Of a DNA stretch of 64,000 nucleotides, positions 2,967 to 26,332 are shown piece by piece. How positions within the stretch are numbered: the stretch's first letter is position 1; every line of letters starts with the position of its first letter. The DNA is from a virus (lineage: Duplodnaviria; Caudoviricetes): positions 66,356 to 130,355 of the IMG/VR virus record IMGVR_UViG_3300037067_007160. One strand, given 5' to 3'. The notes beneath the pieces are model-generated. The model did no database searches. It was not told the origin of the DNA and saw nothing but the letters and a program-made list of their open reading frames with translations. The translations under genes and the position numbers were made by a program.

Positions 2967-4551
2967 GAAATTTGCCGAGGATGCAAAAAGGTATATGATA
3001 ACAAGGCCAGAGGGTCGTAATAGAACCCTACTTGGAATCCTTAATGCTTTGGCTGAGTTTGAGAAGAGAATAGATGAGGCTAGAGTTGCTGACATACCAA
3101 ATATTGATGAAGATACAATACCTATGTCGGCCGAGTATAATGACACAGTTCAGATGATAATGGACGATCTTAATTCTATAAGGATCCATCAAATATATAT
3201 AATATCTAATCTCCTTACATCATGGAATGAAATTGAGCAAGTAATTTCTTCGGAAGAGGAAGAGACAACAGTCGATAGAGAATTTTCCCTCTTCTCAACA
3301 ATGGCAGCTGTAAATGGGCATACAACGCTTGGTGTAAAGGTATCGCAATCTGCGATACAACAACTTAAGGAGCCTCCAAAGCTTACAGCAGCATGCTCTG
3401 ACTCTACGGTAGTTCCAATTTATGGAAAGAGTTATGGCCTATATGTTAAAGGAAATGAGACAGGAGAAGATGGAGTTAGACCAGACGATAATGATGGCAC
3501 AAAGATAATCGACAATAAAGATACTTTCTGGGAGGCAGAAGCTGTAACTCTTCAAGAGAAGATGGACGATGACACATATAGTCCCCAGATAACGAATACG
3601 AATGAGATATCACTATCAGTAAACATAACATGCGTATTCAAAGCGCCCATTAATATCAACTTCTTTAGTATAGATCCACATGCCTTTGCTCAGAGTAACT
3701 ACTATGATATAACATCAATCAATGTAATATCCGGAGCTACTACAATTCCTGTCCTTACAGATTTGGTTACTGTAACAGGTAAGACTAGAGTAACATTCAA
3801 TACGACTATGGCGAATGCTATTCAAGTATCTCTTCTACAGAATAAGGGATATTATCAAAAGTACAGTCTAGCAAAGTATAGCATAGGAAATAATTCACTA
3901 TGGATAGATATAACAGGACCACATCTTATAGAGAAGATAGGAGTAAAGACGGGAGATATAAACAAGGTCGTGAGAGAACAGATAGAAGATGCTAATGAGT
4001 GGATAGCATCTATCTGGATGCCAGATGCGCCAACCTCAGAGTCTGCAGTTCTTGACTATCTAGCAGGTGATGAAGGATATATGAGGATAGACTCTTCAGA
4101 GAGTAAGAGAAAGAGATGGGCTATTGGAATACAAGAAATTGATTTTGGTGAAGAACTCTACGAAGATGTATCAGAAGTTGTTAGCCTTCCATATGATATG
4201 CCAGATGAAACAACATCTGTCTATGTTCTAGCTGACGAGGATGTACCTAGTGGAACTGAGATTATATATATGCTCTCATTTGATGATGGTGCTACATGGT
4301 CTGAGATCCTTCCACTAAATAGTAAACCTAAGTTAAAGGATACTGGCTATCTTATCCCCCAGAGAATCTATATCAATAATGATCTATCATTTACAAGGAA
4401 GCAAAATAGTCTTACGGGAATTGATGGATTTGTAAATACGCCAAATAGAAAACTAAGGACAAGGGCTATCCTAAAGAAGGGGGAGACATCCTCGAACACG
4501 CCACGGATTAAAAGTCTATTGCCAGTGTTCGACACGTCTGTGCCAACATGA
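2953..4551 (+). CDS. Putative baseplate/structural protein
   Basis: 532 aa; D-x-FWEA motif like the preceding ORF (YWEA); SFDDGATW motif; TPRIK near C-terminus. Confidence 0.55.
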   Translation: MDLLEKFAEDAKRYMITRPEGRNRTLLGILNALAEFEKRIDEARVADIPNIDEDTIPMSAEYNDTVQMIMDDLNSIRIHQIYIISNLLTSWNEIEQVISSEEEETTVDREFSLFSTMAAVNGHTTLGVKVSQSAIQQLKEPPKLTAACSDSTVVPIYGKSYGLYVKGNETGEDGVRPDDNDGTKIIDNKDTFWEAEAVTLQEKMDDDTYSPQITNTNEISLSVNITCVFKAPININFFSIDPHAFAQSNYYDITSINVISGATTIPVLTDLVTVTGKTRVTFNTTMANAIQVSLLQNKGYYQKYSLAKYSIGNNSLWIDITGPHLIEKIGVKTGDINKVVREQIEDANEWIASIWMPDAPTSESAVLDYLAGDEGYMRIDSSESKRKRWAIGIQEIDFGEELYEDVSEVVSLPYDMPDETTSVYVLADEDVPSGTEIIYMLSFDDGATWSEILPLNSKPKLKDTGYLIPQRIYINNDLSFTRKQNSLTGIDGFVNTPNRKLRTRAILKKGETSSNTPRIKSLLPVFDTSVPT

Positions 4552-6257
4552 CATTTACTGAAGATTTTAATACCTCTATTAATGAACTAAAGACAACTAT
4601 AGAAGAGCTTCATACTAGGTCGAAAGAGCAGGTCACGTCCTTTATACAGAAGAGTGGATCTTCCTATACCGAGCTTCTTAACATTCTCAAGAGAGATACC
4701 TTGCTCGAAGATACATTTGTTGATGGTAGCAAGATAGCAGAGATTGATCAGTTGTCCTATGATAGGGATGGTTGGACAAATAGTTTTGTTACAACCGAAG
4801 TTCCTTTTCTTAATGAATACTACACAAGTACGACTTATCCAATGATCATGGATGGTGGTAGAATTATTCCAGGAAGTGATTTTTCCAAATTATTCCTTGA
4901 TAGAGAAGGATTCTGGGGATACATGAAAGACGATGACATAAGTACACCATCTGAGTTTTCTCTAACTTTTAAGCTTAAGAATAACCAACCAGTAAGTGCA
5001 AATAGAATCTATCTTAGAACCAATAATATTCTTGACGTAGAGTGCTTCTATCGTCCTGATTTTGGAGAAGAGTGGGTCTCGCTTGGATCACGTGGTGGTA
5101 GACATCATGTATGGACAGCTCCTTTCGTTGGTGTAGAAATAAAATTTTCTACTACTACGACAATGTTTGCTATATCATTCGTTGCCGTCTGTGAGGCCAT
5201 ATTTGCTAAGAGTGGTAGTTTTACGAGCACATACTACACAGTAGATGACTTAAGAAAGCTTAGGATAGATGTTGATGCTGATATACCAGCTGGAACAAAT
5301 ATAAGAAAGTTTATAAACATAACAAACACAATACCAAACACAGTTCCTGACTCTGGTTGGATAGAATGGAATGGTGATGATGTTATAACACTCTCTACGA
5401 TTGAGACGCTAGCTCCTGTAGAGAGTGGATATATTATACCAAGTGGTTACGTTCAGGATTCAATAGTTCTTAGGAAGGGCTATAGAGAATGGGATAATGT
5501 TACTGAAGTAGACTATCCACTAGTAACAGAGTCTATCGAACGCCTTGGTACAAACTATCTTGATATACCAGCTGGTTATATGGTCGTACAGGATGGTGTA
5601 GCATCAATGTTTATTGGGGATGGAGATAGTAGAACAAACTTTACAAAGGATGAAGACTATACAGTTACGTACAATACTGATGCTGATACTGTGCTTGTCA
5701 CTAACATTCCTGGCGGAAGGTTAGATGGTATCTTAGAGCATCCATATGCTGAAATACGTATTAGAAAACCAATAAGCGTTGTCCAAAGAAGAACATTTGT
5801 CTATCTTGAGAATGATAATGACATAGTTGTTTCTATACCTACTCCAGGGATTACGCTTCGTTCTCTTCATATTGGTGATACCATAGAGAACGAAATAACT
5901 ATTGAGAATATTGAGACTGGAGAATATACAATAGAAGGAAAAAGTGGGCTTACTCTAGTCGAGGTTGAAAACTTTGATTCGGTAAATGCTCCACAGATAC
6001 TAAGCGTGTATGATTACTTTTCAAGTCGATACTGGTTAAGAGAGAGTGAAAGTATACCACCAGAGACTAACGAATATTATCTAGATCCAGCCGAGAGTGG
6101 ATTCAAACTAGTGGCTATTGATACAAATTTATATCTTCGCTACCTAATACCAACAGACTATAACAATGTTGCTATCAGTTTCGAACTAGAAGGAACAGAA
6201 CAGATAGCACCACTTCTTCGTGGTTATGAATTAACAAATACAATCGACAAAATTTAA
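4548..6257 (+). CDS. Putative structural protein
   Basis: 569 aa, acidic and beta-rich, coupled to upstream gene. Confidence 0.55.
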   Translation: MTFTEDFNTSINELKTTIEELHTRSKEQVTSFIQKSGSSYTELLNILKRDTLLEDTFVDGSKIAEIDQLSYDRDGWTNSFVTTEVPFLNEYYTSTTYPMIMDGGRIIPGSDFSKLFLDREGFWGYMKDDDISTPSEFSLTFKLKNNQPVSANRIYLRTNNILDVECFYRPDFGEEWVSLGSRGGRHHVWTAPFVGVEIKFSTTTTMFAISFVAVCEAIFAKSGSFTSTYYTVDDLRKLRIDVDADIPAGTNIRKFINITNTIPNTVPDSGWIEWNGDDVITLSTIETLAPVESGYIIPSGYVQDSIVLRKGYREWDNVTEVDYPLVTESIERLGTNYLDIPAGYMVVQDGVASMFIGDGDSRTNFTKDEDYTVTYNTDADTVLVTNIPGGRLDGILEHPYAEIRIRKPISVVQRRTFVYLENDNDIVVSIPTPGITLRSLHIGDTIENEITIENIETGEYTIEGKSGLTLVEVENFDSVNAPQILSVYDYFSSRYWLRESESIPPETNEYYLDPAESGFKLVAIDTNLYLRYLIPTDYNNVAISFELEGTEQIAPLLRGYELTNTIDKI

Positions 6258-6582: not shown

Positions 6583-7527
6583 ATGGCAGAAGCCTATCTT
6601 GAACTACGTGATCTAAAGATAAGGAATGCTGCCTTTCGTAGTGCATCTAGCCTATCAATGGACTATCTAATAGGAAGGATCAACGCCCTTCCTAGTACAT
6701 TGACGGGACTAAAGATTAGTGCATATAATCCAGTCGTTTCATCAACCGGGATTCAGCTGGATAATGTATATGGTCAGTTGACTCTTGAGGAGCAGGATAG
6801 AACAACCCACATACCAGTGGATGATGATAACTATGGAAACTCACGAGCGTTATCATCCGTTTCAATAGAGACAGGATCAACAGAGTCAAACTTCGCACCA
6901 AATGCTGATATTAGAGCTGTTATCGATGAAGAAGATGAGATATGGTGTGTGACGATGGCTGATGCTGATACAGACGCTGGTTCCATATGGATAAGGGTAG
7001 CTACTCCAGCGATAGCCCAGGTACCAAACTTTGTTGCCGTATATCCATTATCTGGAACGATAGTTGATACGATAAAGGTTAGACATACAAGTGGATATAC
7101 GACATTTACACCATCTTCTGAATGGCCAATAAAGTATCATCAGAACTTCTCAGACTACCAGAACGAGGTTAGAATCAAGCTAAATGGTGTAAGTAGTGGT
7201 AATGGAACCTATAAGTTTTCCCTTAAGAAGATAGAAATATATAGTGTTAGGTACGCATCAGAGGGAACCTTTACCTATCTAACGGAGGACGCATTTACTG
7301 ATATAGCATCGGTGACTATCAATAGCTCATACTTCTATCCAATAGTCTCACAGAATGTTGGAATGTTACGGATTAGAGTCCTAACAAAGGACTCGAGTAC
7401 GGTGCTCTACGATAGCTCAAGAGGGTCATCGGCGTTCGTTGTGCCTGCCGGACCAGAGCAAGTTGTCGTCGAGGGCACCCTCTATCGTACAGATGGGAAT
7501 ACGCCGTTTATAAGAACCATTACTTGA
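6583..7527 (+). CDS. Putative structural protein (true start may be upstream, near 6496)
   Basis: 314 aa ORF; frame open from 6463. Confidence 0.6.
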   Translation: MAEAYLELRDLKIRNAAFRSASSLSMDYLIGRINALPSTLTGLKISAYNPVVSSTGIQLDNVYGQLTLEEQDRTTHIPVDDDNYGNSRALSSVSIETGSTESNFAPNADIRAVIDEEDEIWCVTMADADTDAGSIWIRVATPAIAQVPNFVAVYPLSGTIVDTIKVRHTSGYTTFTPSSEWPIKYHQNFSDYQNEVRIKLNGVSSGNGTYKFSLKKIEIYSVRYASEGTFTYLTEDAFTDIASVTINSSYFYPIVSQNVGMLRIRVLTKDSSTVLYDSSRGSSAFVVPAGPEQVVVEGTLYRTDGNTPFIRTIT

Positions 7528-19425: not shown

Positions 19426-19862
19426 GGGCCTGAATTAGGTTTGACGGGGCTCACCGAGTGAAAGCGGCAAGCAGGGCCGGCACAACGTCCCTTGAAAAAC
19501 TTGTGCAAAGCCTAAATGGCAAAGTAAAAGAAGAGTCCAGCCTGCTCTCTCAGGCTATGGCGATTATTGACGCAGCGTTCGAAAGAGCGCCGGAGTTCGT
19601 TCTCGCCTAACCCGCAAGGGTTGTCTCGATCCTAACTAGATTCGTTCACCTTGTAAGGGATCGGGTAACACTAGGTGAATGGCGGTCTCTATCAGCGCCT
19701 TATCTGGTAGATGGTGGAGGAGCCTAGAAGATTTACCAAATGATTTGGTAAATCTTAGTTCGCTCCCTGTAGTAAACCAAGCCATTGGTTAATTGGCTAA
19801 GCTTGTAGATGCGATCATAAAGGAGTTTCGGACGCGGGCTGCGATGCCCGCCAGGTCCACCA
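19426..19862 (+). ncRNA. ssrA: tmRNA; tag frame 19518-19610 (A)GKVKEESSLLSQAMAIIDAAFERAPEFVLA
   Basis: GGGCCTG..TTGAC 5' end, GGAC-GCGGG..CCCGC-CAGGTCCACCA 3' end with G3:U70; TAAAT before resume codon. Confidence 0.92.
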
Positions 19863-19869
19863 ATATAAG

Positions 19870-20383: not shown

Positions 20384-20471
20384 GGAGAGTTGGGTGAGAG
20401 GCTTATACCAGAGGTTTGCTAAACCTCCGAGCCGCAAGGCTCCACAGGTTCGAATCCTGTACTCTCCACCA
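20384..20471 (+). tRNA. tRNA-Ser(GCT)
   Basis: GAGGT-TTGCTAA-ACCTC, long variable arm. Confidence 0.92.
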
Positions 20472-20555: not shown

Positions 20556-20571
20556 GATTTATGGGAGAAAT

Positions 20572-20886
20572 ATGGATAAAAGAACATATAAAGATAGAAG
20601 AGAATATCTCATAAAAGCAGTAAAGAGAAGAAGACGAGAATTAAGAAAACAAGCAGTGAATTATGCTGGAGGAAAGTGCATTTTATGCAATTATAATAAA
20701 TGCTTACATGCACTAGAATTTCATCATAAAGATCCAACACAGAAAGATTTTGGAATATCAAATGGTAATTGTAATAGTTGGAATAGAATGAGGAATGAAA
20801 TTGATAAATGTATTCTAGTCTGTGCAAATTGTCATAGAGAAATACATGAGAAATTGGCGTCTACCCATCAAGGTGACGGGTCCTGA
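20572..20886 (+). CDS. HNH endonuclease; stop codon inside tRNA-Asn
   Basis: CILC..LEFHHKDP..KCILVCANCHRE. Confidence 0.85.
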   Translation: MDKRTYKDRREYLIKAVKRRRRELRKQAVNYAGGKCILCNYNKCLHALEFHHKDPTQKDFGISNGNCNSWNRMRNEIDKCILVCANCHREIHEKLASTHQGDGS

Positions 20887-20932
20887 CTGTTAATCAGGCA
20901 CAAGGGTGGTTCGATCCCACCGACGCCAGCCA
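20855..20932 (+). tRNA. tRNA-Asn(GTT)
   Basis: TGGCGTC/GACGCCA, CCTGA-CTGTTAA-TCAGG. Confidence 0.85.
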
Positions 20933-20950
20933 AATTTAGGAGATATATAT

Positions 20951-21385
20951 ATGCATCTAACATACACAAAAGCACAATTAGCATCACTTAAAGTTCAAAT
21001 GTGGGCTAATCAATTAGGATATGTCGTTTCAATACCAACTGTTGAATCTAGATATGATATTCTTGTTGATGTTGATGGAAAAATATTTCGTTGTCAAGTT
21101 AAGTATGCTGGAAGAAAGCTTACAAGTGGGGCAACAGAGTTGGATCTTCGTAAAGAGACAAGAAATAATGGGAAAAAAAGATTATATACGAAAGATGAGA
21201 TAGATGTTATTCTTGTATATGTTCCTGAAGAAGACAAGGTTCTTTGGATTGATCATTCTAAATTTCATAATAGAAAAAGTCTAACAATTAGACATATTGA
21301 GAATACAAAATGTAAACAAGATTCAATATTTGTTAACGATTATATATGGGTCCAGAGCTCGGTTGGTAGAGCAGACGCCTCTTAA
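20951..21385 (+). CDS. PD-(D/E)XK homing-type endonuclease; stop codon inside tRNA-Lys(CTT)
   Basis: VSIP..RYDILVD..RCQVKY..Y...EID motif; AGGAG RBS before ATG 20951. Confidence 0.82.
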   Translation: MHLTYTKAQLASLKVQMWANQLGYVVSIPTVESRYDILVDVDGKIFRCQVKYAGRKLTSGATELDLRKETRNNGKKRLYTKDEIDVILVYVPEEDKVLWIDHSKFHNRKSLTIRHIENTKCKQDSIFVNDYIWVQSSVGRADAS

Positions 21386-21423
21386 GCGTAAGGTCGTGGG
21401 TTCGATTCCCACTGGTCCCACCA
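21348..21423 (+). tRNA. tRNA-Lys(CTT)
   Basis: ACGC-CTCTTAA-GCGT, TTCGATT loop, ACCA. Confidence 0.88.
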
Positions 21424-21430
21424 ATTTGTT

Positions 21431-21463: not shown

Positions 21464-21539
21464 GGCCTTATAGTGAAATTGAATATCACATCTCCGTCCT
21501 AAGGAGAAGTTTTCGGTTTGAGTCCGAATAAGGCCGCCA
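21464..21539 (+). tRNA. tRNA-Arg(CCT)
   Basis: TCTCC-GTCCTAA-GGAGA. Confidence 0.88.
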
Positions 21540-21554
21540 GATATAGGAGTCTTC

Positions 21555-21923
21555 ATGAACAAGATACCACTAGTCTCAGTAACCAAAGATGACTTGGAAA
21601 TACAGACGTTTAGATGTGGAGGAAAAGGTGGCCAGCATCAGAATAAGACAGAAAGTGGAGTAAGAATTATTCATCCTCCATCTGGAGTAACAGTAGAGTC
21701 AAGAGAGGAACGGTCACAGGCACAGAACAAGGCTATTGCATTTAAGAGACTTACTACTAATAAGAAGTTTCTATTATGGTTAAAGATGGAATCGGCTAGG
21801 AAGATGGGCATCCTTGAAGATATTAATAGGGCAGTTGATAGGATGATGGATCCAAAGAATATAAAGACCGAAGTTAAAGAAGATGAGAAATGGGTAGAGA
21901 AGGAATTAGCGGGTGTGGTGTAA
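21555..21923 (+). CDS. Stand-alone RF-1-domain peptidyl-tRNA hydrolase (ArfB-like ribosome rescue factor)
   Basis: FRCGGKGGQHQNKTESGVRIIHPPSG..ERSQAQNK; lacks codon-recognition domains. Confidence 0.88.
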   Translation: MNKIPLVSVTKDDLEIQTFRCGGKGGQHQNKTESGVRIIHPPSGVTVESREERSQAQNKAIAFKRLTTNKKFLLWLKMESARKMGILEDINRAVDRMMDPKNIKTEVKEDEKWVEKELAGVV

Positions 21924-21982
21924 TGGTAGCATGAGACCCTTCCAAGGTCCAGGTACGAGTTCGAGTCTCGTCATCCGCTCCA
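21909..21982 (+). tRNA. tRNA-Gly(TCC)
   Basis: GCGGGTG/CATCCGC, CTTCCAA loop, TCCA. Confidence 0.9.
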
Positions 21983-21987
21983 GTTTT

Positions 21988-23747: not shown

Positions 23748-23834
23748 GCCGCGTTGGCAGAGTGGTCTATCGCAGCTGACTGTAAATCAGCCGGACTATG
23801 TCCTTCGGTGGTTCGAATCCACCACGTGGCACCA
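23748..23834 (+). tRNA. tRNA-Tyr(GTA)
   Basis: GCTGA-CTGTAAA-TCAGC, variable arm. Confidence 0.92.
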
Positions 23835-23876
23835 TATTTGGTTCGCGAAGCCAAGCTAGAGCTTAAGATATAATTT

Positions 23877-23956
23877 GGCCATAACCACAAATCCTGGTGG
23901 TATTAGGCAAGTAAGCGTTGGTCCAGGAATCCAACGGACTATAAGTCCTGTAGCCA
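23877..23956 (+). ncRNA. Unassigned tRNA-sized four-way-junction RNA with possible kissing loops
   Basis: Closing stem GGCCATA/TGTAGCC; hairpins ACCAC/GTGGT, GTTGG/CCAAC, GGACT/AGTCC; TCCTG/CAGGA loop complementarity. Confidence 0.5.
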
Positions 23957-23960
23957 AATT

Positions 23961-24034
23961 GCGGGTGTAGTATAAAGGTAGTACGACACGTTGCCAACGT
24001 GTAGGCGCCGGATCGTTACCGGTCACCCGCTCCA
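23961..24034 (+). tRNA. tRNA-Gly(GCC)
   Basis: ACACG-TTGCCAA-CGTGT; T-loop ATCGTTA. Confidence 0.88.
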
Positions 24035-24042
24035 AGTTTATC

Positions 24043-24116
24043 GGGGTCGTGATGCAACTGGCAGACATCGAAAGCTCAAACCTTTCGTCCTGTGGGTTCG
24101 AGTCCCACTGACCCTA
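24043..24116 (+). tRNA. tRNA-Leu(CAA), short variable region, no encoded CCA
   Basis: GAAAG-CTCAAAC-CTTTC. Confidence 0.85.
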
Positions 24117-24202
24117 CGGTCCTGTAGCTCAAGTGACAGAGACAAATGTTACTATTGACATATAGTTCTGTTTAAGATATAATCTTGGTAGGAGGTCAGA
24201 TC

Positions 24203-24655
24203 ATGAATCCACCAAGATATTTACATCTGAAAGAACAAGTGATACATCTTCGTAAGCAAGGATTTGGTTATAGGTCAATTTCAAACAAGCTTAATAATAC
24301 CATTCCATGGAGTTCTGTAAGAAGACTAGTAATTGGAATGCGTAGTAATCCAAGACTAGCTTATCTAATGGCGACTGAATACTCTCAAAGGAGACCAAAG
24401 GAATGGAATGATATACGAACAATGAGAGTTCGTCGTTTGTATCTTATTCAAGAACGTGGTCATAAATGTGAAAGCTGTAATTTAAGTTTCTGGAAAAATC
24501 ATACTATTCCACTAGAACTTGAGCATAAGGATGGATGTAGAACTAATAATAGTAAATCTAATTTAGAGTTATTATGTCCTAATTGCCATGTTTTTACTCC
24601 TTATTATAAAGGAAAGAATACTTCATCTTTTCGAAGTAGGGCGAGTGTGGTGTAA
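24203..24655 (+). CDS. HTH + HNH endonuclease; stop codon inside tRNA-Leu(TAA)
   Basis: KCESC..LELEHKDG..NNSKSNLELLCPNCH; GGAGG RBS. Confidence 0.88.
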   Translation: MNPPRYLHLKEQVIHLRKQGFGYRSISNKLNNTIPWSSVRRLVIGMRSNPRLAYLMATEYSQRRPKEWNDIRTMRVRRLYLIQERGHKCESCNLSFWKNHTIPLELEHKDGCRTNNSKSNLELLCPNCHVFTPYYKGKNTSSFRSRASVV

Positions 24656-24717
24656 CTGGCAAACACTCTGATCTTAAAAATCAGATCTTGTGAGTTCGAA
24701 TCTCATCACTCGCACCA
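24641..24717 (+). tRNA. tRNA-Leu(TAA), short variable region
   Basis: GCGAGTG/CACTCGC, CTGAT-CTTAAAA-ATCAG. Confidence 0.88.
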
Positions 24718-24783
24718 ATTTAATATTAGCGAACTAGTGTCGGTTCGAGTCCGACCAGGACTACCATATTTATGGGAGGATGT

Positions 24784-24918
24784 ATGAAGAAAGACACATT
24801 AAGATGCCCATATTGTAAGGGTGATATGAGGCATTCGAAACCGGATCAGAACGGAAACGTAATTTGGAATTGTGACTATTGTAAAGCAACATTAGCTGAT
24901 AAAATATCCACCAAGTAA
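24784..24918 (+). CDS. Small zinc-ribbon protein (44 aa)
   Basis: CPYC..WNCDYC; GGGAGG RBS. Confidence 0.6.
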   Translation: MKKDTLRCPYCKGDMRHSKPDQNGNVIWNCDYCKATLADKISTK

Positions 24919-24921
24919 AAT

Positions 24922-25176
24922 ATGGCAGCGATACTAGGCTGGATCTCTACCATCATCTTCTCAGTCTGTATCCTACCACAGATCTGGAAGACTTGGAAGA
25001 GTAAGAGGGCTGATGATATCAGTATTGTCTCATGGCTCATGTTCTTTACTGGTAACGTAACCGCCCTAATATATGCTATAATGATAGTCCAATGGCCGCT
25101 GATCATTAAGTACGTTTTCGCACTTGCTGCATCTTTTCTATTGACAGTATTATGTTTATTGTATAAAAGGAGGTAG
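24922..25176 (+). CDS. PQ-loop/SemiSWEET-family membrane protein
   Basis: LPQIWKTWKSKRADDIS motif, three TM helices. Confidence 0.82.
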   Translation: MAAILGWISTIIFSVCILPQIWKTWKSKRADDISIVSWLMFFTGNVTALIYAIMIVQWPLIIKYVFALAASFLLTVLCLLYKRR

Positions 25177-25177
25177 C

Positions 25178-25402
25178 ATGCTCATGAAAGCGAAAGTAAA
25201 AGAATGGTTCCTTGGAAAGGCACTGAAGAAGGTTGCATCACAGGTTGCCATATTCGCGGTCGCCATAGTAGCGGCCGTCAACGCCAAGAACCTTGGAGTA
25301 AATATTAACATTGATCCTGATGTGCTGGCTGGATCCGTCTTCGCTGGTCTTCAGCTATTGCGCAACTTCCTCAAGACAAAGTATAATGTAGACTGGCTTT
25401 AA
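25178..25402 (+). CDS. Small membrane protein (holin-like)
   Basis: Two hydrophobic segments; AGGAGG RBS. Confidence 0.55.
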   Translation: MLMKAKVKEWFLGKALKKVASQVAIFAVAIVAAVNAKNLGVNINIDPDVLAGSVFAGLQLLRNFLKTKYNVDWL

Positions 25403-25412
25403 CATTCTCAAT

Positions 25413-25486
25413 GGCTCCGCAGCTCGAAGGTCGAGCATCCGGCCTACATCCGGAAGGGGCTGGTTCAATTCCAGCCGGGGTCACCA
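25413..25486 (+). tRNA. tRNA-Val(TAC), C33
   Basis: TCCGG-CCTACAT-CCGGA. Confidence 0.88.
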
Positions 25487-25557
25487 ACTTTGCGCTCAAA
25501 GCTCATATGGCTGAGCATATGTCGATAACTGTGATATAATTTAACTAGGAGGATATC

Positions 25558-25965
25558 ATGGATAAGACATGTGTTCTTTGTTGGAATAAAGTAAAGAAGT
25601 ATAGATCTGATATATGTGGATCATGTATGGTTTTAATACGGAGACTTCGTCTAAAACTTGCGTGTATAAAGTTACTTCATGGAAAATGTTTCAAATGCGG
25701 AATGATCGCAACATTGAAAAATCTAGGAGCATTTCAGTTTCATCATAAAGATCCAAGTGAGAAGAAGTTCCAGTTATCATTTGGTACATACTCTTGGGAT
25801 AAAATAAAAGAAGAAGCAAGAAAATGTGAACTTTGGTGTGCTAATTGTCATTCTATTAATCATGCAACAACATACACAGAAGAAAAGATTAATAGAGCTA
25901 TACGTTTTTGTGGAACTGAAGATATACATAATCTTGTAGCAGAATGGAAAATTATTGGCTCGTAG
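25558..25965 (+). CDS. HNH endonuclease; stop codon inside tRNA-Ile(GAT)
   Basis: KCFKC..FQFHHKDP..KCELWCANCH. Confidence 0.85.
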   Translation: MDKTCVLCWNKVKKYRSDICGSCMVLIRRLRLKLACIKLLHGKCFKCGMIATLKNLGAFQFHHKDPSEKKFQLSFGTYSWDKIKEEARKCELWCANCHSINHATTYTEEKINRAIRFCGTEDIHNLVAEWKIIGS

Positions 25966-26029
25966 CTTAATGGTCAAGCCATCGCTCGATAAGCGATAGA
26001 TGTGGGTTCGATTCCCAACGGGCCAACCA
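25956..26029 (+). tRNA. tRNA-Ile(GAT), cassette-borne, C33
   Basis: TGGCTCG/CGGGCCA, ATCGC-TCGATAA-GCGAT. Confidence 0.85.
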
Positions 26030-26093
26030 ATATGATAACCGGGAGATAGCAGGTTCGAATCCTGCTGGGCGCACCAAATACGGAGGACGCATA

Positions 26094-26129
26094 ATGGCGA
26101 AGAAGAAACCTCGTGGTGGCTGTAAGTAG
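26094..26129 (+). CDS. Possible micropeptide MAKKKPRGGCK
   Basis: GGAGG RBS; followed by hairpin ACTCCCC..GGGGAGT. Confidence 0.35.
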   Translation: MAKKKPRGGCK

Positions 26130-26163
26130 ATAGAAGACTCCCCTCAACTTGGGGGAGTTACTT

Positions 26164-26236
26164 TGCGGAGTCATTCAATGGTAGGATGTCGCTCTCTGAA
26201 AGCGATAACGTTGGTTCAACTCCAGCCTCCGCAGCC
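26164..26236 (+). tRNA. tRNA-Gln(CTG)
   Basis: TCGCT-CTCTGAA-AGCGA. Confidence 0.88.
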
Positions 26237-26327
26237 GGAAGATTGGCCGAGTGGTTTAAGGCACTCGTCTTGAAAACGAGAGGACCTGATGAAGGTTCCA
26301 CTGGTTCGAATCCAGTATCTTCCGCCA
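26237..26327 (+). tRNA. tRNA-Ser(TGA)
   Basis: CTCGT-CTTGAAA-ACGAG, long variable arm. Confidence 0.92.
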
Positions 26328-26332
26328 ATTTT

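Follow-up and report, generated by a model that had tools for sequence, protein, structure and literature searches.

Why should a phage keep one isoleucine transfer RNA (tRNA) gene in two pieces and hold a second, complete gene with the same anticodon between them? The question is raised by a 64,000-nt stretch of DNA (the window; positions 66,356 to 130,355 of IMG/VR virus record IMGVR_UViG_3300037067_007160, Duplodnaviria; Caudoviricetes), which makes up the second half of a 130-kb virus contig of ~52% estimated completeness. Within its tRNA array, the halves of a resident tRNA-Ile(GAU) gene enclose a 515-bp insert (25518-26032) with a promoter, a ribosome-binding site, an HNH endonuclease gene and a complete tRNA-Ile(GAU), the cargo. 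We propose, with a probability of roughly 0.85, that this insert is a mobile cassette in which a free-standing HNH homing endonuclease travels together with a replacement for the tRNA gene that it breaks. The locus is laid out as follows; L067 is a contig of a related phage, described below.

25492..25517, + strand: 5' remnant of the resident tRNA-Ile(GAU), positions 1-26 (acceptor 5' strand, A8 A9, D-arm, A26), from the sequence and homology to L067:7355-7381
25518..25538, + strand: scrambled junction, TATGTC in place of the anticodon-stem 5' strand and then GATAACTGTGATATA, from the sequence and local alignment
25531..25540, + strand: promoter-like GTGATATAAT (extended -10, TGnTATAAT), one of six exact window copies, overlapping GATAACTGTGATATA
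25547..25552, + strand: ribosome-binding site AGGAGG, 5 nt ahead of the ATG, from the sequence
25558..25965, + strand: HNH endonuclease gene, 135 aa, from the open reading frame (ORF) and PHROG 2255
25956..26029, + strand: cargo tRNA-Ile(GAU), complete with CCA, from ARAGORN and Rfam (tRNA, 54.2 bits)
26030..26032, + strand: spacer ATA, 3 nt, from the cargo CCA to the resident 3' remnant, from the sequence
26033..26076, + strand: 3' remnant of the resident tRNA-Ile(GAU), positions 33-76, from a 5'-truncated Rfam tRNA match and a 90% match to L067:7403-7431

Two remnants of one tRNA-Ile(GAU) gene around a second

Do the two remnants derive from a single gene? The 5' half (GCGCTCA AA GCTC ATATGGCT GAGC A) begins 5 nt past the CCA of tRNA-Val and contains a complete D-arm, and the 3' half (TGATAA CCGGG AGATA GCAGG TTCGAAT CCTGC TGGGCGC A CCA) runs from U33 through the anticodon GAU, A37 A38 and the 3' side of the anticodon stem to the variable loop and a perfect T-arm, and closes with the acceptor 3' strand, A73 and CCA. 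The acceptor strands of the two halves (the 5' strand and 26066-26072) pair at 7/7 positions, with one G-U, and the D- and T-stems are perfect. Between the halves 6 nt are missing, which would make up position 32 and the 5' side of the anticodon stem. Joined through a 6-nt filler, the halves are called by ARAGORN as a canonical 76-nt tRNA-Ile(gat); joined directly, they give no tRNA call. In the Rfam tRNA model the 3' half scores as a 5'-truncated match (model positions 32-71, 26.6 bits), and the 26-nt 5' half, too short on its own, gives no Rfam tRNA match. An initial annotation, made from the letters alone, had described here a tRNA-Ile(GAT) at 25492-26076, broken at the anticodon stem and with another Ile(GAT) nested inside; sequence, ARAGORN and Rfam bear out these coordinates exactly, and they likewise uphold its account of a missing anticodon-stem strand of about 6 nt, of remnants that still pair well, and of a cargo that differs in acceptor, anticodon stem and loop. 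Its left boundary needs revision: positions 1-26 do end at 25517, but the remnant probably reaches 25538 by way of a diverged copy of resident sequence.

A homologous gene in unbroken form is found in L067, a 132-kb JGI contig whose phosphatase, HNH_5 and large structural ORF are 59%, 68% and 62% identical to those of the window, and which has the same layout of a transfer-messenger RNA (tmRNA) and a tRNA array, here of 38 genes. At L067:7355-7431 lies an intact tRNA-Ile(GAU) gene to which the two halves align in unchanged order, with 59/70 positions identical (84%), and the best L067 matches of each half in blastn-short fall inside this one gene. The case against its reading that the annotation had allowed for, in which the halves would belong to tRNAs of relatives that are unrelated to each other, is not borne out. 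Both the halves and the L067 gene have the rare A8-A9 and the D-arm GCTCATATGG..GAGC. In the window acceptor pair 6:67 is C-G and pair 7:66 is A-T, where L067 has T-A and G-C, respectively. The partners of these two compensatory double changes lie on opposite sides of the 515-bp insert, and the halves therefore evolved as one working tRNA. Intact genes of the resident type are also present in the arrays of two large phages (L065 and L066), where they are less close, at ~70% identity. For the six cassette-type nucleases of the window, no homologue was found in the 20.8-kb L067 locus that holds the tRNA array. Directly after the intact L067 gene, at 7433-7506, ARAGORN calls a second Ile(gat) with the loop TCGATTG (C33, U37, G38).

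Pairing by itself is a weak guard against chance, given that 13% of shuffles pass a test for 7/7 acceptor pairing (G-U allowed) together with any 4-bp D-stem within 1 kb. Chance is nevertheless ruled out, because the 5' half sits so close behind the tRNA-Val CCA, because both halves match a single intact gene in a relative, and because the locus is 100% identical in two independent assemblies, L058 (a 71.7-kb contig of a near-identical phage from an NCBI metagenome assembly) and L059 (an ENA contig). It is also present in runs X2 to X4, and its identity in independent assemblies of other samples means that it is not an assembly artefact. Conceivably, the halves might form a split tRNA gene of the Nanoarchaeum type, with two transcripts that would pair and be joined; this would accord with their perfect D-, T- and acceptor stems, but the anticodon stem lacks one of its strands and the halves are not flanked by complementary leaders. 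Such a split gene, an assembly chimera and chance resemblance are, even taken together, highly improbable.

The cargo is the only tRNA-Ile(GAU) on the 130-kb contig. Every one of its stems differs from that of the resident (acceptor TGGCTCG/CGGGCCA, anticodon stem ATCGC/GCGAT), and its anticodon loop reads UCGAUAA, with C33. It carries A73, C4-G69, U12-A23 and C29-G41, which are reportedly identity elements of E. coli isoleucyl-tRNA synthetase (Nureki et al. 1994). The stop codon of the HNH gene, TAG, coincides with positions 8-10 of the cargo, so that the two genes are physically tied, and they are probably carried on one transcript.

At the left junction, GATAACTGTGATATA (25524-25538) is a diverged direct-repeat copy, at 12/15 positions, of resident positions 34-48 (26034-26048; GATAACCGGGAGATA). 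The statistical weight of this resemblance is modest (p ~0.01-0.04): a local alignment of the left junction to 26029-26048 is equalled in 15/2000 shuffles, and in 128/3000 with wider windows. The segment looks like a diverged partial duplication of the target that spans the anticodon, the 3' stem and the variable region. A repeat search found no terminal inverted repeats bounding the cassette. An integrase-type tRNA island was considered as well and rejected, since HNH is the only ORF of the insert with a family match and the flanking repeat is imperfect and derives from positions 34-48, not from the 3' end of the gene.

Cassettes of the same layout at other tRNA genes

Does a nuclease gene move together with the tRNA behind it? 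At least three nuclease-tRNA cassettes lie within 3 kb of the array, and two of them accompany the Ile cassette as follows.

26411..27030, + strand: sister cassette in tRNA-Glu(UUC), with 5' part 26411-26449, insert 26450-27002 and 3' part from 27003, from contigs of four runs
24118..24770, + strand: third cassette, with 5' remnant, TTGACA-17-TATAAT promoter, HNH gene 24185-24655, cargo tRNA with anticodon UAA 24641-24717, and 3' remnant with matching acceptor

The Glu insert, ~400 bases downstream of the Ile cassette, contains the promoter GTGATATAAT at 26468, an HNH gene (26484-26924) and a cargo tRNA-Glu (26903-26975). In contigs from four metagenome runs of three studies, the longest of them an 8-kb landfill contig, 26449 is joined to 27003 through 12 other nt (TCTGAAGACACG). 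This joint yields a canonical tRNA-Glu(UUC) (ARAGORN ttc; stems TCAGA/TCTGA and ACGGG/CCCGT), and the HNH gene and the cargo tRNA-Glu are both gone. Because the 12 nt are missing from the occupied site, the unbroken form cannot be a deletion product, and presence and absence at a homologous place (26449/27003) are clean for this cassette. The first ~15 nt of the Glu 3' remnant, 26988-27002, read like a diverged version of the displaced segment, which looks like a part of the insert rather than like decay in place.

The converse case is found in L058, where a PD-(D/E)XK gene and a cargo tRNA-Ser(gct) are nested in a tRNA-Ser(gct) gene (4301-4960) whose counterpart is intact in the window (20384-20471). 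This Ser cassette has mutated copies of the anticodon arm at both junctions and carries a GTGATATAAT promoter. A junction direct repeat looks meaningful in the Ile and the L058 Ser cassettes only, and a comparable one is absent from the Glu, UAA and L064 cassettes; our reading does not lean on it.

L064, a contig without nucleotide similarity to the window, repeats the layout at an isoleucine gene. The end of its HNH gene (P0089, 36% identical) overlaps a tRNA-Ile(gat), and both are nested between the remnants of another tRNA-Ile: CTGCATG TA GCTTAG, 3 nt after tRNA-Leu, and CTGATAA GTGGA AGATC GCAGG TTCGAGT CCTGC CGTGCAG A, with acceptor strands that pair 7/7. The 3' remnant begins at the anticodon loop, again without the 5' stem strand, and has the T-arm of the resident type in the window. 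The same break position in two such diverged Ile cassettes points to a conserved target in the anticodon arm. Judged by sequence, the presence and absence of the Glu cassette, the converse Ser case in L058 and the recurrence in L064 say that nuclease and cargo tRNA form one mobile unit. The annotation's reading of the Ile locus as a swap gains from these comparisons, in which Glu nuclease and cargo come and go jointly, the empty site is an intact tRNA gene, and L064 has the Ile layout once more.

These comparisons also bear on a scenario whereby the nesting is incidental: two tRNA-Ile genes would have been there first, or the second would have arrived by ordinary recombination, and the HNH gene would have come later in a separate event. 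Tandem Ile genes do exist in this group of phages, as the paired Ile(gat) calls of L067 (7355-7431 and 7433-7506) indicate. However, a tandem pair followed by an insertion would leave the second copy outside the halves, and the cargo sits between the nuclease gene and the 3' half, with the stop codon of the nuclease lying inside it; the second L067 gene shares just 50% identity with the cargo; in the Glu and Ser cassettes, nuclease and cargo arrive or disappear jointly; and in L064 the nested arrangement is found again with a different nuclease, a different cargo and a different resident. We therefore consider two separate events unlikely and favor a joint arrival of nuclease and cargo.

The nuclease and the possible movement of the cassette

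The 135-aa protein matches PHROG 2255 'HNH endonuclease' (E 7.2e-17) and three further HNH PHROGs, and a search of 1.84 billion representatives gives 12,455 relatives of it at E <= 1e-3. The HNH motif and the zinc-binding Cys pairs are present (FQFHHKD ... KCELWCANCHSINH); in an alignment of 39 sequences C44, C47, H63, C90, C94, C97 and H98 show no variation, and H62 and H102 almost none. As regards the beta-beta-alpha metal fold of such enzymes, an AF2 model reaches a predicted local distance difference test score (pLDDT) of 92.7, and its top structural matches, at weak scores, are mostly HNH nucleases (Cap5, the Cas9 HNH domain, the Gme nicking HNH, T4 endonuclease VII and GVE2 HNH). NCBIfam gave no match for the protein, and a sequence search of solved structures returned spurious matches only (E >= 0.19).

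Seven of the eight HNH relatives whose context was inspected adjoin tRNA genes. The closest relative in IMG/VR (47% identical; L005, 2620-3279) lies directly downstream of a tRNA gene with a ~195-nt group I intron in its anticodon loop (Rfam 37.7 bits, E 9e-8). For a pairing of an intron with a free-standing nuclease beside it, 'collaborative homing' has reportedly been described (Bonocora and Shub 2009; Zeng et al. 2009), and the L005 arrangement may be a tRNA version of it. By this comparison the same HNH lineage occurs with both rescue devices, the intron in L005 and the spare tRNA in the window. Two further arrangements were seen among the relatives. In L007 (2741-3335) the stop codon TAG of an HNH relative also falls on positions 8-10 of the next tRNA, which has ~53 extra nt within a perfectly paired anticodon stem (CTCAG/CTGAG). 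In the cultured jumbo phages fHe-Yen9-04 of Yersinia (L060:1377-1935) and XbC2 of Xanthomonas (L061:1214-1945), tRNA-Ile(GAU) is followed, 530-700 nt downstream, by an orphan T-arm with an acceptor 3' strand; a matching 7-mer, AGTACTG, stands just past that tRNA and is followed by an HNH relative, before tRNA-Asn. These jumbo-phage loci may hold a further split tRNA, although the 7-mer comes close to a palindrome and a D-arm is absent.

Could the insert of the window itself be a self-splicing intron, of group I or another kind, that harbors the HNH gene, and the halves the exons of a working tRNA-Ile? Group I introns do occur in the anticodon loops of bacterial and phage tRNA genes, and the intron beside the L005 nuclease lends the idea some appeal. 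Yet Rfam finds no intron or ribozyme family in 24000-27600 even at E <= 1, the exons would be short of the 6 nt of the anticodon-stem 5' strand and their direct join is not called a tRNA, and the insert holds a whole second tRNA. Moreover, the empty Glu site has 12 nt that are absent from the occupied one, which splicing could not restore. An intron is thus hardly credible here, and we return to a cassette that replaces the tRNA gene it breaks.

How might such a cassette spread? We infer nuclease activity, target, cut position, homing and cargo function in the following scenario. During a mixed infection, the HNH protein would cut or nick an unbroken tRNA-Ile gene of the resident type, in or beside the anticodon arm. 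Repair from the cassette-bearing genome, with the flanking tRNA halves and the neighboring tRNA genes serving as homology, would then copy in the nuclease and the spare tRNA jointly, so that both would enter together. The split would take out the 5' strand of the anticodon stem, and the occupied site might thereby no longer be recognized. The cargo would presumably not be a target either, because every stem of it differs from the resident's, and it would take over the decoding of AUC and AUU.

We also envision, as a tentative and rather doubtful extension, that the cassettes work on tRNA alleles as gene drives of a natural, cut-and-replace kind, which would break the resident gene, install a divergent isoacceptor and thus sweep variants through phage populations. 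With the stop codon inside the cargo, processing by RNase P would leave the nuclease mRNA as a non-stop message, and the overlap would thereby couple nuclease dose to tRNA maturation. If this were true, variants of the C33 type in the anticodon loop might escape host anticodon nucleases, and a selfish element might double as a vehicle of counter-defense.

How does the cassette relate to known elements? SegB of phage T4 is a free-standing, GIY-YIG-type homing endonuclease in a phage tRNA cluster, which cuts tRNA genes of phages without SegB and whose homing swaps the tRNA region of the recipient for that of the donor (PMC2330249). It recognizes the T-psi-C region at the 3' end of the tRNA gene and homes via long flanking homology, and no nested halves are described for it (PMC2330249). 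There is a statistical association between homologues of SegB and phage tRNAs (PMC13096335). Like SegB, the Ile cassette has a nuclease gene among the tRNA genes of a phage array and involves no intron or intein. Unlike SegB, its enzyme is an HNH protein and the break lies at the anticodon arm, and it forms a compact unit of promoter, nuclease and tRNA with the same anticodon, set inside the broken target, with the stop codon of the nuclease in the spare tRNA. The HNH enzymes F-TflI/II/IV of the tRNA region of phage T5 are reportedly free-standing homing endonucleases in a phage tRNA cluster as well. In the literature covered (open-access papers and bioRxiv), homing endonucleases in phage tRNA clusters are described, and a nested replacement tRNA was not found.

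Integrase-driven prophages and islands likewise insert in tRNA genes and carry a copy of the tRNA 3' part. The Ile cassette resembles them in targeting a tRNA gene, supplying replacement sequence and leaving a displaced remnant. It differs in having no integrase or att-type recombination, with the 135-aa HNH as its sole protein, in bringing a whole divergent tRNA instead of an identical 3' segment, and in residing in the array of a lytic-type phage, not in a bacterial chromosome. With homing endonucleases encoded in introns or inteins it has in common that a conserved, useful gene is targeted and a device that keeps the function is brought along; unlike them, it brings a second complete gene without RNA or protein splicing and leaves the original dead.

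The known means by which homing endonucleases keep their target gene working are an intron, an intein or a position beside the gene. The Ile locus would add a fourth way, in which a complete spare copy of the destroyed gene is carried along. This would account for the patchwork make-up of phage tRNA arrays, in which nuclease genes, tRNA fragments and duplicated isoacceptors are mixed, and would offer a route for the horizontal spread of tRNA alleles between phages, which bears on phage tRNAs as a counter to tRNA-cutting host defenses. The cassettes might also be a source of small natural nucleases that are apparently directed at defined sequences within tRNA genes. For the Ile case a direct test is within reach, given that the intact target allele of L067, an occupied site and a presumably immune cargo allele are all available.

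Strain comparisons and the surrounding array

A number of points weigh against our reading of the Ile locus. The cassette is present in every near-identical strain that could be read, with no empty Ile site among them, and its absence is seen in the more distant L067, whose gene order differs; being moderately close only, L067 offers a homologue of the resident gene and not a strict empty site. Pattern scans for an unbroken resident gene (the exact 5' and 3' halves in IMG/VR, two junction-spanning patterns in JGI metagenomes) returned 0 matches. The left junction is not clean, in that anticodon, 3' stem and variable region are retained there in a diverged copy, and an imperfect 15-nt direct repeat at the junctions is not expected from plain double-strand-break repair and stays unexplained. 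As to the nuclease, its structural matches score weakly (E >= 0.05 in Foldseek; in VIA, Z 4-5.9 across residues 21-106), and the protein falls below the threshold of Pfam PF01844, which paralogues in the array do reach. Finally, the unusual C33 of the cargo loop may bear on its charging and use.

Comparisons among strains nonetheless fit a recent spread. Between the window and L058 there are zero differences over 23857-26188, and the flanks differ in patches, a pattern that would be expected if this stretch had spread recently, and that gives a hint of preferential inheritance with co-conversion of flanks in mixed infection. The 'recent insertion' of the initial annotation is thereby suggested and no more, by stems that have not decayed and by 100% identity of the cassette across three assemblies. 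In run X5 (wastewater, ~93% identical nearby) there is almost no depth over the HNH genes of the three cassettes and no joint across the Ile cassette is listed, which counts neither way. The annotation had pointed to BLAST as a way to source phages; megablast and blastn against 50,697 phage records gave a single match, at 77%, between the cargo tRNA and tRNA-Ile of Xanthomonas phage X1. When the upstream 74-aa ORF and the HNH protein were used in word-based protein searches, each returned its own cluster only, and no record exists of an 84-aa ORF; in IMG/VR the flanking phosphatase has distant relatives only (<=45% identical).

Around the Ile locus, the array is a mosaic of cassette gains and losses among strains with 97-100% identity elsewhere. 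Four stretches, 20561-20852, 20938-21427, 21475-21985 and 23754-23828, are skipped or replaced in the landfill variant (X2 record 2 / L058); they hold, in this order, the HNH gene at 20572; a PD-(D/E)XK gene with tRNA-Lys(ctt); an RF-1-domain ORF with tRNA-Gly(tcc); and a tRNA-Tyr that is swapped for a divergent allele. In the anticodon stem of tRNA-Gln(CUG), at 26189-26209, window and L058 differ by a patch of paired changes on both strands, the remaining gene being identical.

In the window, ARAGORN lists 33 tRNA genes between 19870 and 28892, all on the + strand, and the tRNA matches of the whole 130-kb contig are confined to this one array. Endonuclease genes are dispersed in it, of the HNH type at 20572, 22079, 24185, 25558, 26484, 27055 (- strand) and 27762 and of the PD-(D/E)XK type at 20906. 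The motif GTGATATAAT occurs in six exact copies in the window, with 0.19 expected, all on the + strand and upstream of genes (6262, 17272, 19200, 25531, 26468 and 59857); two of them belong to nuclease cassettes (Ile and Glu), and the motif is probably the phage's own extended -10 promoter. Five anticodon loops have C33 instead of the near-universal U33: those of Lys-UUU (20478), Ala-UGC (22806), Val-UAC (25413), the cargo Ile-GAU (25956) and the resident Glu-UUC (26411).

A tmRNA is called by ARAGORN in L058 and L067 at the place homologous to ~19426-19866 of the window, with the tag GKVKEESSLLSQAMAIIDAAFERAPEFVLA in L058. ARAGORN lists no tmRNA in the window, yet an ORF at 19458-19610 encodes the same tag as the L058 tmRNA. 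The phage encodes both a tmRNA and an RF-1-domain factor resembling a rescue factor.

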